Origin: Candidatus Cloacimonadales bacterium
Lineage (GTDB): Bacteria > Cloacimonadota > Cloacimonadia > G963667145
Reading direction: 5' to 3'
Assembly: GCA_965140615.1 (NCBI GenBank)
Contig: OZ223280.1
Coordinates: forward strand, 904,450-968,449
DNA length: 64,000 nucleotides
Shown here piece after piece: positions 53,901 to 59,900 of this stretch (the first letter of the stretch is position 1; every line of letters starts with the position of its first letter). A program made the position numbers.

Positions 53901-56900
53901 TCTTTGGACGAGGTAACTTCGGAGAACATCTTCAACTACGACCTTGTAGCCAAAACTATTAAAAAAGACGGCACAACTCTCACTGCCAAGGAAATTCTTT
54001 CTGGAGGAGTCAGAGAGTGGCTTTATGAACCGATAGTAGAAAGGATCTTGGCGAACAAAGTACTCAAATCAAGACCTGTCATCAAAGACGGCTACCTAGA
54101 AAATATCGAAGAATTAGCTGGCTACGGTCCATTTTTGATGTACTCCAGCATGAAAAAAAATGACGGCTCCCCAGTTTTCCCTTCAACTATGGGTGGAGGA
54201 TTAGGAGTGGAAAGATTTATGTTCGCCACGCTCCGCGGAGAGAATGTCCAAAAGATAGATGATGTAACTTTCTTCGGCAAAAACCCCGACTCTCACTCGC
54301 TCTACCTTTTCTAGATTACACAAAAATTTAAAAGCCGACTAGTTTTTAACTAATCGGCTTTTTGTTAAGTTTGATTTTTATCATAAATGTAACAACTACC
54401 AAAAAAATGTATCATTTTAAGTTTACAACATATTATGTTTAAAGTGGTTATAAATAAAATGTATTTATGTAACAATTCTTTTTGAAAAATATAACAATTT
54501 ATAGTTGCAACTTAACAAATTTCATCTTTTGCAAAAGAGTTATAATTTCTCGAAGCAAATAGTTATTATCAAATCTCAAAGTATATTTTTTGAAGTTCTG
54601 TTTATCTGACTAAATCATCTTTTTCTCTTTCAATTTTTTCAAAGTTCGAGACCTTTCTATGTAGCTCTTACCCTCAAAAAAAATTCGCTATGTCAGAAGC
54701 TTTAAAAACTTGCTTTTCCACTGCTACTTTTAATTTTTTTCTAACTCAGTAATATCCTCTCTTTTTGGCTTATATTAAAGACGAAATCAAAATCTTATCT
54801 TTTAAATAAAGAGTAATCTAAAAGCTTATCTATTTTTTCAAGTTCATCTTTTAGCCCCGACAAAACATATTCACACCACCTAAAAGTCCGACTCTTTTCT
54901 CTCGAATCGGCTTTAGACAAATAGCGATAATAGTTATTACGGTTACTAAAAAATAGCTGTAAAGTTTAGAATACGACCCTCTTTTACATTAAATCCGCAT
55001 TTTAATAACATTGCTATTGGTCAACAGGCGAACAGTTCTTCCATTGCCATTATCGAAAGGGTGAATCCAGACAAATCGATGATGAGCAATGGCAACTTTG
55101 AGTAAAATGAAAGCTCCACACTAAAAGTACCCCCCAAGTTAGCGATTTGTAATTGGCTGGTTTATGATAAAATGAAACCGAAGATATATGAATACGGATT
55201 TTTGAAAGCCTAGCGTTTAGCTAAGCAAATAACTTTTGCATAAATAAAGGAGCTGAATTTTCAACTCCTTTTCTGTTGCGATGATTGTTTTATCTAGCTG
55301 GTGGTGTGCTTTCGCAGTTGGAGACGATAGTGTCGATTTGCACCAAAGCACCCATCGGGATTGTAGATACGCCTACGATGGTGCAGGTTGGCAAGTCGCC
55401 TGTGAAAAACTAAGCGTAGGTTTCATCAAGATTGCTTCTGCGTCCATTTGTAGTTCGAGGTCCTTAGCGAAAGAGTTATGCTATTTTGGCAGTTGATTGT
55501 GATTAGTCCTTTCCTAGCACAAAGAACAGCCGTTGGGCTTGGTCTGCTTGGGTGGGGCTAATGAGTTTACCCTGTGAATACACCCCTTTCAATTGCCAAG
55601 GAGATTTTGCGATGAGGTTTATGAGGGTTTGGGCTGAGTATATTTTTTGCTGATGAGTTTCTACGAAAGAGTCGTAGAGGTAGCCGTTTTTTTGGAAGAA
55701 ATGGAAGTTGGTAACTTGTGTGTCTTCTTGTAGATAGCACTCTTGCATCACGAACTGTTGCTCATCTTTTTGGTAGTCGAGTAGTCCGTCGAAGTTGTCT
55801 TGGCAATTTCTGAGCGTGGAGACATCGAAGATGAAGAGTCCGCCAGAGGTCGTGCGGTGGTGCGTGGCAAGCAGGAGTTGGGCGATTTGCTTTTGGTTGG
55901 CAAGGTAGTTCAGGCTATCGAACATCAGCAAACTCAGGTCGAAGCCTGTATCGCCTGCTTTTTCTAGCATATCGCCAAGCTGCAGTCTAGGGTGATGAGG
56001 CTTGGCTTTTGCGATGGATAGCATTTGCTGGCTGATATCTTCGCCGAGCACATCGTAACCTTGCTCTACCAATCGGCAAGCGATGTTCGCCGTGCCACAA
56101 GCCAGCTCTAGTATCTTCTGTGGCTTGCACCCTTTGACCTCTTGGTAAGTGTCTAAGACGAACTGTGTCCACTCTTGGTAGCGGACATGGCTCATATACT
56201 GGTCGTAGATGGGTGCTAGATGCGAGTAAGTTGAAATCTCCTGACTCTCAAGCTTCAAACATTTCTCGGCGAAATCTAGGGCACAGACGAGGCTGCCGGG
56301 GTCGGCTATGTCTTGCCCAGCGATGTCGCAGGCTGTGCCGTGATCTACGGAAGTGCGGATGAAAGGTAGCCCGAGGGTGGTGTTCACCCCTTTGCCTTTG
56401 GAGAGCATCTTGAATGGGACTAGCCCTTGGTCGTGATAGGCAGAGATAACCATCTGGTAGTTGGCAGAGTTGTAGGCGAAGAATGTGTCTGCGGGGAAAG
56501 GTCCGTCAATCTCGATTTGCTCTGCTTCTTTGAGCTCTGCCAGCCAGCTTTTTATCTTTTGGTCTATTGTGCCGAAAGCTCCGTTTTCGCCAGCGTGCGG
56601 GTTCACGGCGAGCATCGCCAGTTTTGGATTGGTGAGCATCTTTTTGCTGTGGTGATAGATGATGCGTATCTTTCCCTTGAAAAACTCCTCGGTTAGCGTG
56701 GGCTCTACCTCTTGCAGGGCTAGATGTGTGGTGAGTAGTGCCAAGTGGAAGTAAGGACCGAAAAAGCTCATCACGAATGGGTATCGCCCCTGTGCAAAAA
56801 ATTCGGTGTGTCCGATGAAACTAGGGTCGGTCAGCTGGATGGCGTGCTTGTGAATAGGGCAAGTTACCACTGCGTCTATCTGCTCTTGGTCGGCGAGCAC

Positions 56901-59900
56901 TTGTCGCAGTGCCTTTAGGCTATACTCCCCCGAGGATTTGTCGGGCAGTCCCAGCTGGCACTGTGGCTTGCCCAGATCGAGGATGTAAAGCTTGCCCGCA
57001 GTGTCCGCTTGTGCTAGTGAGGTAATCTTCTGGGCGTTGAGCTCTGGTGCGTGTCCATAGACGATGTAGGCAGCTTGTGGATGCAGTTTGCGGAAGCGGA
57101 ACGCTTTTCCGATAATCTCCTGACCGATGCCAGAGGGGTCTCCTTGGGTGATGACGATTTTTTTCATTTTAGGATGTTTCTTATCTCCATTTGTTTTATT
57201 TTTCGTAAAGGGTAGTAAACGCCACAGTAGATGACGCTGCTACTTACCAGAAAGATTGTAAGGAACGATTGCCACGAGAACGAGGTCTGGATGTGCGAAA
57301 TCAGGTAGACGCTTTGGTCGAGCAGGTATAGAGTCTGCTTGGATAAAAAGTAGCCCAAGCCGTAGCCCAGAGCTTGCCCAACTATTATTCCCACTATGGC
57401 GATAGCGAATATTCGCAAGAAAAAGGTTCGCTTGATATCTTTGTGTCGCATTCCCAGTGATTTGAAAATGCCTATTTCTTCACGGCGAGAGAGGATGAAG
57501 ACCAGCACATTGTTCACCACGCCGAAGGAGGCGACTACCACCAGAAGGGAGAGGATGACAAAAAGCATAAACTTTTGGAACTGCAAGAATGCGAAGAATT
57601 TCTTATTGTGCTGATTCCACGGCACTGCGGGATAGAGGTCTTGGCGGAGTTTTTGCACCGTTTTTTGTAAATCTTGTGGATTATGTAGACGCAAACCTGT
57701 GCAGTACGAGGCTTCTGCCAGCGTAAAGGTTTTTTGGAAGTCGGACAGGCTGATGAATGATACGCTCTGGTCGTGCTGCGAAAACCCGCTGGAGTAGATG
57801 CCCACCACTTTGTACGCCTTCTCCCCGTAGCGGATGCCCATGGGCGTGAACCTGGGTGTGAACGAGGGGTTGAGGGTAATAGCGTCGCCGACTTGCACCT
57901 TTAGCTCTTGGGCGAGAGGTTTGCCCAGCACTATCTGCCCTGCGGAGTCTAGCTCGCCTGTGCCTGCTGTGATAAACTCTTGGTAAGCGAATGGTGCTTT
58001 TTGCCAGACTATTCCCTGCACCATGGCGGATTTACTGTTATTCTGTGAGCTTAATAATCCGCCTGCGTAGCCGATTTGAGAATATTTGGCAATCTTGGGA
58101 TTTGCCGAGAGATCCAGCTCTGTGTTAAAAATAGTAATCTCGGGTGAGATGTTGGAAAACAGGTGCTTGAGTGCTTTTTGGTAACCATCGAAGATGCTCA
58201 TTGCACAAGTCAGCACTGCCACGGAGATTAAAATGCCTGTAATCATAAAGCCAAAGTCGAAGTTGAGCCACTTTTTGTCTCGTAACGAAAAAAAATTTTT
58301 GGTAAGGTAAAAAACAATCTTGTTCATAGGAGCAGATAGGCGATAGTGGACAAATGTGTCAATTGTGTATTGGGGAATTTTGCTCTGAGCAAAGCTGTGT
58401 GCAAGAGCAGATTTGTTAGCTTAAAGGTTTTTTTACCCTAACCACAGAAACACGCAGATGGAAGCAAAACATAAAATCCGTGTTCATTGTGCTAATTTGT
58501 GGTTTTATTGCTTTTCCATCCTTTACATTTATGGGTTGACTAAAAAACCCTAAAATTTACCGTGCTTTTAAAATTTATATAGACCTCATTTTGGTGAATT
58601 TCTATCCCTGATAGAGATTAAAAGGAAATCTTGTGAAACGCAAGAGCGGACTTTGCCACCGTATGTAGCGTGTAAAGCTTACAAAAAGTTCACTGCTTTT
58701 TTTGGTAAAAGTGGGAAGAACTTTTGTCTTGTTTTGACCGTATAGTCAAAAAAGCTAGCTACCAGCCGGGAAGCCTGCCAAATTTGTTGTAGATTGCATC
58801 GACTTACAAAGAGTTTAAGTCGATAAAAATGCTTGCGGATTGTTGTGCCAAAATTTGAGGATCTTTTATTTTTAGGAGATTTTTAAATTGAAAAACACAG
58901 TAATCCCCTTTCTTTTTGTGGCTCATTTTTGGTGGATTTTAGCTTTGCAAGGGAATGTGCTAAACGACCTTGGCAATCCCGTGCCGATGGCAGAGATAAG
59001 CTGGCAAAACTCTTCTACCGAGTCCGACTCTGCGGGATCTTTCTTCTATCCTCCAAATATCACCAAGCTCAAAATCTCTCATCCCCAATATCACTCTCAG
59101 ACGCTACTGCTGAGCCTACCCAAACCCAACGCACCAGAGGTGCCGATGGCTGAGGTCAGCTTGCTAGAGGTGATATTACTGAAAAAACCCGCTAAAGCCC
59201 CACGAGCTAGCCAAGAGGTCGTGGCAATCGGAGATGCCTCTAGCGTGGCAGCGGCTTTGAACAAGCGGTTTTACCTCAAAGGGCACAATCTGCCGGGCGA
59301 ATCTGCTGAGCTTTCTCTGAGTGGACAAAAGTCAAAAAACAGCTTGGTGCTTCTGGAGAACATCCCATTAAATATGAGCGGTCAGCCTGTGGACATCGGG
59401 ACTTTTGGCTCACTAGTGTCCGATTTCGCCGAAGTGGACATCTACCAGCCTACTAGCAGTCTGGCAGTGGGAGGCGAGCTCAATCTTATCCAGTGCCTGA
59501 GCGGACAAAGCCAAGTGAAGCTTGCTCAAGCAGTGGGGAGCTATGGTCTGCAAAGCTCCCTCGTGCAGATAGACGGCTTTACGCAAAACCATAACTACCG
59601 CTTCGGCTACAGCCATCTGCGAGCAGACAACGATTACCAGTATACAGACTACTGGGGCAACAGACACACCCGAGACGACAACCAGAAGCAGATTGACAAC
59701 CTCTCGCTGGCTCTGGATGGACACAGCTTCAAGTTTCGTCAAGTCAACATCTTTTTCGACAAGGGCTTGCCCGGAGCAACAAACGAGCTAGACTACTTCA
59801 CAGGGGCGAGCTCGCAAGGGCACCAAAGCGTCTCGACGCTGAGCCATCACTATCAGCTAGCACACCTTGCCATAGACAGCGATCTGGGGTATAACCTGCT

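Follow-up and report, generated by a model that had tools for sequence, protein, structure and literature searches.

The window analyzed here, a 64,000-nucleotide stretch of DNA from a Candidatus Cloacimonadales bacterium, contains a pdxA gene fused in frame to a sequence encoding a class I SAM methyltransferase, a fusion that is the norm for pdxA among Cloacimonadota-type bacteria. The first-pass annotation had recognized a single uninterrupted ORF combining the two modules. This was borne out by translation, which revealed an ATG start and no internal stop codon over 554 residues, and the peptides ITQGDPSGIGQEI, HGTACDIAG, and ILELACGTANIACRL were all found in the product. Both domains scored above the Pfam cutoff of 27 bits, with PdxA (PF04166) matching residues 42-300 (249.9 bits, E = 4.5e-74) and Methyltransf_25 matching residues 352-442 (37.3 bits, E = 4.7e-9). 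Methyltransf_11 and Methyltransf_12 likewise matched the methyltransferase half, and the NCBIfam model TIGR00557 (pdxA) spanned residues 3-302. The AlphaFold2 model of the fusion protein had a mean pLDDT of 89.6 and a pTM of 0.81, confidence being lowest at the domain junction (pLDDT 75-78). The limits initially proposed for the domains were retained in part: both domains are present, but alignment of the helix YSHLAPIYDQYM with residue 4 of 3D2L, a stand-alone homologue, moves the start of the methyltransferase from residue 330 to about residue 313.

Table 1. Features of the pdxA-methyltransferase fusion locus (positions in the window).
Feature	Position	Strand	Description
LolC/E-like (FtsX/MacB_PCD) permease gene, upstream	57164..58327	-	TGA stop overlaps the fusion ATG
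Fusion ORF	55503..57167	-	554 aa and stop codon; PdxA joined by a short linker to the class I SAM methyltransferase
PdxA domain, residues 1-303	56259..57167	-	PF04166, TIGR00557, alignment to 1PS6, Foldseek
PdxA-half motifs			GDPxGIG nucleotide loop, residues 9-15; GHTE, residues 119-122
Zn-ligand histidines	H148, 56724-56726; H191, 56595-56597; H245, 56433-56435	-	With D246 and R271
Inter-domain linker, residues ~304-312	56232..56258	-	Sequence variable, length near-constant (fusion-family alignment, columns ~333-345)
Methyltransferase domain, residues 313-554	55506..56231	-	4-beta-strand cap; Pfam, 3D2L/1Y8C matches, Foldseek
Methyltransferase motif I, residues 352-360	56088-56114		ILELACGTA (by translation of these codons)
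Other methyltransferase motifs			N-terminal Y314..YD..YM.HV.Y..W; acidic D377; FDSLNY, 416-421; FIFDVST..NC..NFDG; E503-x-H505-x-Q507; RLFFVL

A search for the same fusion in relatives was successful. In a collection of 5.8 billion proteins, both Pfam domains were detected in 119 of the 120 best matches (43-100% identity, mostly from Cloacimonadota), and the length of the linker varied by just 1-2 residues among 23 aligned fusion proteins. Since nearly all of the best matches carry both domains with a linker of near-constant length, the fusion is confirmed as a real two-domain gene and not a sequencing artefact. Among the matches, at 65-80% identity, are contigs the size of complete genomes that come from different samples. 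The fusion had been described as unusual, which holds across bacteria (fused pdxA was found in 1 of 80 species among the loci listed, that one being the sole Cloacimonadota locus) but does not make it peculiar to the window genome. It had also been considered that relatives might harbor two separate genes divided by an intergenic gap. Separate genes were indeed found in one of the 80 loci listed, from Ignavibacteriaceae (L039), but without a gap: pdxA (4802-5764 of that locus) and the methyltransferase gene (candidate ATG at 5754) overlap in different frames. The match of the latter methyltransferase was moderate (102 bits), and its adjacency to pdxA could be a coincidence.

The 4-nt overlap with a lolE-like permease gene was found as reported (ATGA, in the context ...AAA ATG A..), and synteny indicated that the permease and fusion genes are retained as a pair in three close relatives (L001, L086, and L087). 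The usual neighbors of fusion genes are the RNase HII gene, located directly downstream, and RadA, ribosomal-protein, or nusA-infB clusters nearby. The fusion gene of the window adjoins neither ksgA, surA, nor pdxJ. An approximate PdxJ probe, which did detect pdxJ in another locus (L027), revealed no PdxJ-like ORF in the 64-kb window. We found no literature on B6 synthesis in Cloacimonadota.

The N-terminal half is similar in fold to E. coli PdxA (1PS6/1PTM; 34% identity; TM 0.82-0.84 normalised to 1PTM/1PS6 and E = 8e-27 by Foldseek), with which it shares the motifs GHTE, NPHAGE, YHDQGL, and RTSVDHGTA. It differs from the latter protein in being about 20 residues shorter and in carrying 250 residues of methyltransferase at its C-terminus. 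In the alignment to 1PS6, H148, H191, and H245 correspond to H166, H211, and H266 of E. coli PdxA, the three ligands of the divalent metal. Residues D246, K107, H120-T121-E122, and R271 also match E. coli PdxA, in the positions of the conserved Asp and phosphate-binding residues; the roles of the E. coli residues are those reported in a 2003 PdxA structure paper. The catalytic and ligand residues displayed no variation across 24 relatives.

Whether the N-terminus groups with PdxA or PdxA2 was assessed from NCBIfam scores and diagnostic residues, both of which favored PdxA. PdxA2 is a D-threonate/D-erythronate 4-phosphate dehydrogenase, and its gene lies beside that of a DUF1537 four-carbon acid-sugar kinase. 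TIGR00557 was the best-scoring NCBIfam model, at 277.6 bits, narrowly below its cutoff of 290.35, and the other PdxA equivalog models scored 164-228 bits against cutoffs of 376-476. The PdxA2 model NF002891 reached 160.9 bits against a cutoff of 583, and PdxA2 identity was rejected. At four positions distinguishing E. coli PdxA from PdxA2 (6E85), namely QGL/QGH, TLGLP/TAGLP, TSVDHG/TSADHG, and AG/AW, the window protein has the PdxA-type residue. No DUF1537 kinase gene was found beside the window gene or in any of the seven intact-PdxA loci surveyed in relatives. Judged from its sequence, the N-terminal half thus looks like a true PdxA rather than PdxA2, and the suggestion in the first-pass annotation that the fusion may serve to make a methylated phospho-sugar or a methylated amino acid, and not PLP, received no positive support from these comparisons.

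The C-terminal half belongs to an uncharacterised subfamily of methyltransferases typified by the structural-genomics proteins 3D2L (Exiguobacterium) and 1Y8C (Clostridium acetobutylicum), which we take to be of the Bacillus YqeM type. Both align over their full length with residues 314-552 of the fusion and share its motifs (N-terminal Y..YD..M..V.Y..W, motif I, [CF]DS.NY, IFD, and the cap-sheet E.H.[QE]). The match to 3D2L covered residues 10-248 of the 250-residue domain (79 bits, E = 3.3e-21, TM 0.87 by Foldseek), 1Y8C being matched with an E value of 4e-19 and a TM of 0.81. In contrast to the window domain, 3D2L and 1Y8C are stand-alone Firmicutes proteins of about 245 residues (23-28% identical); they are uncharacterised and therefore give no clue to the substrate of the window methyltransferase. 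Stand-alone relatives of about 245-260 residues were also detected in a library of 1.84 billion proteins (E values of 1e-22 to 1e-31). The motif residues of the methyltransferase were at least 90% conserved in the fusion-family alignment.

Many class I methyltransferases were matched by this half with a Foldseek probability of 1.00, and it falls in the fold class of N- and C-methyltransferases that act on small molecules and peptide amines. The sugar N,N-dimethyltransferases TylM1, DesVI, and CalS10, the peptide N-methyltransferase CypM, and the indole C-methyltransferases PsmD and SgMT have the same core-plus-cap architecture (TM 0.75-0.83), although the window half is only 14-19% identical to these enzymes (E values of about 1e-4) and lacks the context of a biosynthetic gene cluster. 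NmbA, the bacillithiol N-methyltransferase (PDB 9RI2), is likewise a class I natural-product-type enzyme with a 4-beta-strand cap. The nearest structural neighbor of NmbA is also 3D2L, and NmbA is present in related FCB-group phyla, but 3D2L and 1Y8C fall outside its sequence cluster and its cap topology is distinctive (Hammerstad et al., 2025, PMC12719100). The window methyltransferase is not an orthologue of NmbA, this identity being rejected on the basis of a match to 9RI2 of just 25.7 bits (E = 7e-5) versus 79 bits for 3D2L. KsgA/RsmA identity was also rejected, the RrnaAD and rsmA models being absent from the Pfam and NCBIfam matches.

In relatives, altered forms of the gene are found between the PRTase and RNase HII genes, the slot taken by the intact fusion. 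Proteins of 450-515 residues from Cloacimonadaceae and other lineages (type P0122) have about 40 invariant residues in their methyltransferase, in which the motifs of the fusion are again conserved, and none in their N-terminal domain. The latter domain is nevertheless homologous to PdxA and collinear with it over the full length (hhalign probability of 93.5%, E = 2e-7), versus 0.1% for reversed controls and 0.7-9% for 20 block-shuffles, with one at 49%. Secondary-structure agreement between the models of the two proteins was 64%, versus 34 +/- 5% in shifted controls. The top 50 Foldseek matches of the P0122-type model were all to the methyltransferase half. In other Cloacimonadota, the slot is filled by methyltransferase-only genes (273-277 aa), and a close relative of the window bacterium with a small genome encodes PdxA only, no remnant of the methyltransferase being present. 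Genomes with the decayed or methyltransferase-only genes could hold a separate pdxA elsewhere. Since each half has been lost or has decayed independently, the two halves are evolutionarily separable.

We consider it probable, if by no means assured, that the fusion is the normal pdxA of Cloacimonadota-type bacteria encoding a bifunctional protein, in which a PdxA of the PLP pathway is combined with an independent methyltransferase. The intact motifs of the N-terminal domain predict a PdxA that is able to catalyze and depends on NAD and Zn, and by family resemblance its most likely role is that of 4-hydroxythreonine-4-phosphate dehydrogenase in DXP-dependent PLP synthesis. The C-terminal domain is a SAM-dependent methyltransferase of the 3D2L/1Y8C subfamily, and the two activities most likely serve separate purposes and do not follow one another in a single pathway. 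Read-through of an overlapping pdxA-methyltransferase pair similar to that of Ignavibacteriaceae is the probable origin of the fusion, which may have been retained because the PdxA body, a homodimer in solved structures, serves the methyltransferase as a structural platform. The two-domain models have a high pTM (0.81 and 0.90), as would fit a fixed interface between the domains.

By Rosetta-stone logic, a phylum-wide fusion would classically point to functionally linked partners, which counts against independence. The dehydrogenase and methyltransferase might instead act in sequence on one small molecule, for example if the amine that PdxA consumes or forms were N-methylated, or if a sugar-acid phosphate or B6 vitamer were methylated. 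The outcome would be a metabolite or cofactor bearing a methyl group, made in place of PLP or besides it. The conservation of the fusion across a phylum-level lineage is in favor of such coupling, as are the near-constant linker, the adjacency of the same two gene types in the Ignavibacteriaceae genome, and the high pTM of the fusion model (0.81). The fold class of the methyltransferase, which comprises mostly small-molecule amine N-methyltransferases and C-methyltransferases, points in the same direction. A coupled reaction is chemically conceivable because PdxA both consumes and yields a primary amine and this class includes the amine N-methyltransferases TylM1, DesVI, CypM, and NmbA, which also counts against independence. 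Nonetheless, coupling appears unlikely. A methyltransferase with the same motifs persists where the PdxA half is motif-less or gone, PdxA survives without the methyltransferase in the small-genome relative, the PdxA half resembles ordinary PdxA rather than a divergent paralogue, and the DUF1537 kinase and other pathway genes are absent nearby. The separability of the halves therefore weakens, rather than eliminates, the case for a pathway yielding a methylated product instead of PLP. We regard as very unlikely the more specific version in which the methyltransferase intervenes in the PdxA reaction itself, its target being, for instance, the amine of 3-amino-2-oxopropyl phosphate or of 4-phosphohydroxy-L-threonine, or else a B6 vitamer. 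The decayed and methyltransferase-only forms would then use a separate pdxA located elsewhere. If this version were true, Cloacimonadota would produce either a B6-type cofactor carrying a methyl group or an amino-ketone metabolite that is new.

The methyltransferase could alternatively act on a macromolecule (rRNA, tRNA, or protein), the fusion being the Cloacimonadota counterpart of the common pdxA-ksgA (rsmA) pairing, with housekeeping co-expression frozen into one polypeptide. As in the surA-pdxA-ksgA operon of Proteobacteria and the pdxA-ksgA pair of these and other bacteria, pdxA is physically coupled in the window to a class I SAM methyltransferase gene, and ksgA was found within ~800 nt of pdxA in 16 of the 79 non-Cloacimonadota loci sampled, among those listed (L031, for example). 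The neighbors of the fusion are nucleic-acid and translation housekeeping genes, and the structural neighbor CypM methylates a peptide N-terminus. However, KsgA, an rRNA dimethylase, belongs to another family and is coupled by operon and not by fusion, and the KsgA encoded beside pdxA in L031 differs greatly from the window methyltransferase. The fusion protein has no Pfam or NCBIfam match to RrnaAD or RNA-methyltransferase families and no RNA-binding domain, and the closest characterised structural relatives all use the cap domain on small molecules or short peptides. A macromolecular target is therefore doubtful.

It is highly improbable that the PdxA half of the window protein is already non-enzymatic and serves the methyltransferase only in a structural or regulatory capacity. 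Sister lineages do tolerate and retain a non-catalytic PdxA-derived domain, and the TIGR00557 score is slightly under the cutoff, but all catalytic and ligand-binding motifs are intact and do not vary in an intact-fusion family whose members are 43-80% identical overall, a sign of purifying selection on the PdxA active site, and a close relative kept PdxA while discarding the methyltransferase. Finally, a lost stop codon or frameshift due to sequencing or assembly error has a negligible likelihood. A single indel could fuse a pair such as the overlapping Ignavibacteriaceae genes, but no fewer than 115 independent clusters (at 90% identity), obtained from many samples with many assemblers, contain the same in-frame fusion, complete-size contigs at 65-80% identity included.

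The fusion is an undescribed architecture assembled from known parts. Also new here are the occupation of the same slot by a methyltransferase alone or combined with a decayed, motif-less PdxA-like domain, the relative with PdxA only, and the overlapping gene pair of Ignavibacteriaceae.

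The PdxA–methyltransferase gene is one unbroken ORF of 554 aa with an ATG start in the window sequence (coordinates of this gene and of its surroundings are collected in the table). Pfam detected the PdxA family (PF04166) at residues 42–300 (E = 4.5e-74) and the generic class I methyltransferase models Methyltransf_25/11/12 at residues 352–446. The best NCBIfam model was the pdxA equivalog TIGR00557 (residues 3–302), with a score of 277.6 bits, slightly below the cutoff of 290.35. The methyltransferase half matched unspecific NCBIfam models only, all far under their cutoffs. The stop codon of the upstream permease gene and the start codon of the fusion gene share the sequence ATGA. 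Together, these results confirm the first-pass annotation, which described a single ORF joining PdxA to a methyltransferase and overlapping a lolE-like gene. The two domains proposed there stand, except that the second starts at about residue 313, where the helix YSHLAPIYDQYM aligns to the N-terminus of stand-alone homologs, and not at residue 330. Scanning of the operon region for promoters and terminators revealed no signal higher than shuffled background.

The solved structures closest to the PdxA half were E. coli PdxA (157.5 bits) followed by further PdxA entries. Residues H148, H191, and H245 aligned on H166, H211, and H266 of E. coli PdxA, which are reportedly the metal ligands of that enzyme according to the paper describing its structure, the source of the residue roles used here. 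The GHTE motif, K107, D246, and R271 were also conserved in this alignment. In an AlphaFold2 model of the fusion protein, which was confident (pLDDT 89.6, pTM 0.81), the N-terminal half matched E. coli PdxA with Foldseek TM scores of 0.82–0.84. It had been asked whether this half might instead group with PdxA2 (sugar-acid dehydrogenases). This identity was ruled out by the score obtained with the PdxA2 model (160.9 versus a cutoff of 583), by the four positions that differ between E. coli PdxA and PdxA2 (6E85), at all of which the window residue is of the PdxA type, and by gene context. No pdxJ was found within the 64-kb window with a PdxJ query sequence.

The methyltransferase half aligned end to end with two uncharacterized stand-alone proteins of known structure, 3D2L (E = 3e-21) and 1Y8C (E = 4e-19), and weakly with characterized enzymes. 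Foldseek ranked the same two structures first (TM 0.87 and 0.81, respectively), followed by cap-domain small-molecule methyltransferases, including indole C-methyltransferases (PsmD, SgMT, and SeMT), amino-sugar N-methyltransferases (TylM1, DesVI, CalS10, and KedS8), and the peptide N-terminus methyltransferase CypM. No KsgA-type family was matched in Pfam or NCBIfam, and this assignment was rejected. NmbA, which N-methylates bacillithiol in green sulfur bacteria, also has 3D2L as its nearest structural neighbor, although 3D2L and 1Y8C fall outside the NmbA cluster (PMC12719100). Since, in addition, the NmbA structure (9RI2) scored only 25.7 bits against the window domain, the methyltransferase half is not an NmbA ortholog; the two proteins have a fold class in common, but not orthology.

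The same fusion was sought in relatives, as the first-pass annotation had suggested, and was found. Both Pfam domains were present in 119 of the best 120 matches among 5.8 billion proteins, the majority of which were 550–595 aa in length, with a query coverage of 99–100% and an identity of 43–80%. All named sources among these 120 matches were Candidatus Cloacimonadota/Cloacimonetes except one labeled Armatimonadetes. The window itself is placed either within Cloacimonadota or beside it. A fusion created by a sequencing error was rejected because of this conservation. Alignment of 23 fusions showed invariant catalytic residues in PdxA, methyltransferase motifs conserved to at least 90%, and a linker variable in sequence and almost fixed in length. 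In four contigs of near-complete size (1.54–1.59 Mb) originating from separate samples, the gene was located behind the same permease; the copies were 65–80% identical, except in one contig, where the copy encoded PdxA only.

When only the methyltransferase half was used as the query of an HMMER search against the full library, three groups were recovered: the fusions, proteins of 450–515 aa, and stand-alone proteins of about 245–280 aa. The second group, also from Cloacimonadota (named sources Cloacimonadaceae, ADurb.Bin089, and HGW-Cloacimonetes-1), contains the closest relatives of the methyltransferase half beyond the intact-fusion family (36–40% identity). No Pfam family was matched by its N-terminal 225–255 residues. 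Among 45 members of this group, about 40 residues were invariant in the methyltransferase half, at the motif positions of the intact-fusion family, and none in the N-terminal domain. The ancestry of this domain was judged by profile–profile alignment with controls and by comparison of secondary structures. Alignment to PdxA by hhalign gave a probability of 93.5% (E = 2e-7) over 111 columns under default settings, and was collinear end to end under relaxed settings; the controls gave 0.1% (reversed profiles), 0.7–9% with one value of 49% (20 block-shuffles), and 0.4% (methyltransferase profile). Secondary structures of the two AlphaFold models agreed at 64% of the mapped positions, versus 34 ± 5%, and never more than 45%, when the mapping was shifted. 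The top 50 Foldseek matches of the whole model of one member, P0122, were all to methyltransferases, with none to the N-terminal domain among them. We read the latter as a PdxA domain from which every catalytic motif and some 80 residues would have disappeared, but which would have persisted as a predicted folded module.

The P0122 gene is flanked by genes for a DUF2007-phosphoribosyltransferase (PRTase) and RNase HII, and an intact fusion occupies exactly this slot in another genome (L002). RNase HII directly follows the intact fusion in two further genomes, and stand-alone methyltransferases of 273–277 aa are found in the same slot (PRTase, methyltransferase, RNase HII, HydF). In all four loci compared (L002, L005, L088, and L089), the PRTase with its N-terminal DUF2007, PyrE-like by eye, precedes the fusion or methyltransferase gene and RNase HII follows it. 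Thus, in most Cloacimonadota, the locus has a conserved PRTase–methyltransferase–rnhB core. The small-genome clade of the window has another neighborhood, with lolE upstream and without this core; rnhB and the PRTase gene are absent from the window and from the locus of its close relative L001.

In L001, a 312-aa PdxA-only gene lies behind the same permease. No methyltransferase remnant was detected downstream of it by tblastn or unfiltered HMM search. A 360-nt gap replaces the methyltransferase half and contains a short dispersed repeat. This element of about 50–75 nt (L001, 7240–7310) recurs in at least 10 places on both strands in another relative (L086, 2100–4700), in intergenic DNA upstream of lolE, and seems to represent a family of small dispersed repeats in the clade. 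Outside the phylum, in one Ignavibacteriaceae genome, pdxA and a methyltransferase gene of the same family are separate and in different frames, with an 11-nt overlap if the candidate ATG at 5754 is taken; one indel would suffice to fuse such a pair.

The window also contains a low-GC block (0.29–0.37 versus 0.42–0.50 in the flanks) forming a defense and mobile island, and a cobalamin riboswitch unit (58575–61981) divergent from the lolE/pdxA–methyltransferase operon. The 682-aa ORF of this unit may, as a guess, encode a TonB-dependent, BtuB-like receptor. Some 2.5 kb downstream of the fusion gene, the second insertion sequence (IS) copy lies in low-GC DNA together with two paralogs whose products have the N-terminal motif LD.IC..NGEE..CK..EI....IKYKK in common; the first paralog, the only one scanned, matched the outer-membrane β-barrel model OMP_b-brl_2. 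The adjacent 410-aa ORF, next to the broken IS in low-GC DNA, could encode an AsnA-like ligase or a ligase paralogous to aminoacyl-tRNA synthetases. The AT-rich segment directly downstream of the fusion gene yielded no match to an Rfam family, no tRNA, and no convincing repeat; it lies at a position occupied in relatives by ComEC (convergent) or pantothenate/CoA genes.

Features of the window surrounding the fusion gene
Feature	Position	Strand	Remarks
Low-GC defense/mobile island	~20000-38700	-
HsdM, type I R-M	22971-24494	-
IS-type transposase, copy 1 (HTH_32/HTH_28 + rve_3)	24766-25905	-	Intact 379-aa ORF
HsdS, type I R-M	26774-28324	-
HsdR, type I R-M	28324-31137	-
HerA-like helicase	31347-33026	-	Adjoins SIR2-like protein
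SIR2-like protein	33026-34039	-
Two ORFs without Pfam match	34918-37567	-
Tyrosine integrase	37679-38716	-
Tandem paralogous genes	50050-50880 and 50883-51719	-	Signal-peptide-like N-termini
IS-type transposase, copy 2, same IS type	51909-53013	+	ORFs of 240 aa and 121 aa, apparent frameshift
410-aa ORF	53082-54314	+	Weak full-length tRNA-synt_2 match (class II aminoacyl-tRNA synthetase core), 43 bits
AT-rich segment, 1.2 kb	54315-55502		No ORF > ~70 aa
Strong hairpin	54330-54362		After + strand gene ending at 54314
PdxA–methyltransferase fusion	55503-57167	-	554 aa
LolC/E-like FtsX-family permease	57164-58327	-	Upstream of fusion gene
Cobalamin riboswitch RF00174	58575-58796	+	Rfam, 67.2 bits; upstream of 682-aa ORF
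682-aa ORF	58888-60936	+	Only weak CarboxypepD_reg match
Possible β-propeller protein ORF	60953-61981	+	Weak DUF5050 match; after 682-aa ORF

The best-supported reading is that the fusion protein combines two activities that work independently, an ordinary PdxA, presumably for DXP-dependent PLP synthesis, and a predicted small-molecule-type methyltransferase. Their joining would date from early in the lineage, and the body of PdxA would have remained as a structural support for the methyltransferase, including in proteins where its catalytic function was given up. PdxA is a dimeric enzyme, and this dimerization and the high pTM values of the models are consistent with a proposed scaffold role. 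As judged from relatives, the two halves are evolutionarily separable. The idea that the fusion points to a methylated product in place of PLP is weakened, since the same methyltransferase, its conserved residues unchanged, is retained at the locus where the PdxA half is predicted to be non-functional or is gone, and PdxA is retained without the methyltransferase. A dehydrogenase and a methyltransferase acting in one coupled pathway are improbable for their part: the conserved methyltransferase occurs without functional PdxA in the P0122-type and methyltransferase-only proteins, and PdxA occurs without the methyltransferase in L001. It is also unlikely that the methyltransferase acts on a macromolecule, the fusion being a functional analog of the pdxA–ksgA link, which was observed as ksgA near pdxA in 16 of the 79 non-Cloacimonadota pdxA loci listed across species. 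In one of the loci examined, from Nitrospinales (L012), a stop-to-stop ORF with a KsgA match (5189–6775) is in a different frame from the pdxA ORF (4896–5993) and overlaps it over about 800 nt; this is probably a mere long upstream open frame, and less probably an oddity of the pdxA–ksgA junction.

Each of the two domains falls in a known family, and public databases already contain hundreds of these proteins, named after one half as "PdxA" or "class I SAM-dependent methyltransferase"; the Cloacimonadota/Cloacimonetes proteins among the 120 best matches are labeled plain "PdxA". The literature searched contains no account of the architecture, of where it occurs, or of the decay series, and searches on yqeM, on PdxA–methyltransferase fusions, and on Cloacimonadota with pdxJ, pyridoxal, or pyridox returned nothing useful. 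The importance of the finding is modest, and its mechanism would be a surprise only if the two activities turned out to be coupled. For annotation, the label "PdxA" conceals a second predicted enzyme, the label "methyltransferase" on Cloacimonadaceae proteins conceals a probable dead PdxA domain, and calls of the B6 pathway in Cloacimonadota could err in both directions. For function, a large uncharacterized subfamily of the 3D2L/1Y8C type is now tied to the PRTase–methyltransferase–RNase HII slot and to PdxA. For evolution, one conserved locus offers a natural pseudo-enzyme series, from an intact domain to one that is motif-less but structurally retained, and finally to its loss.
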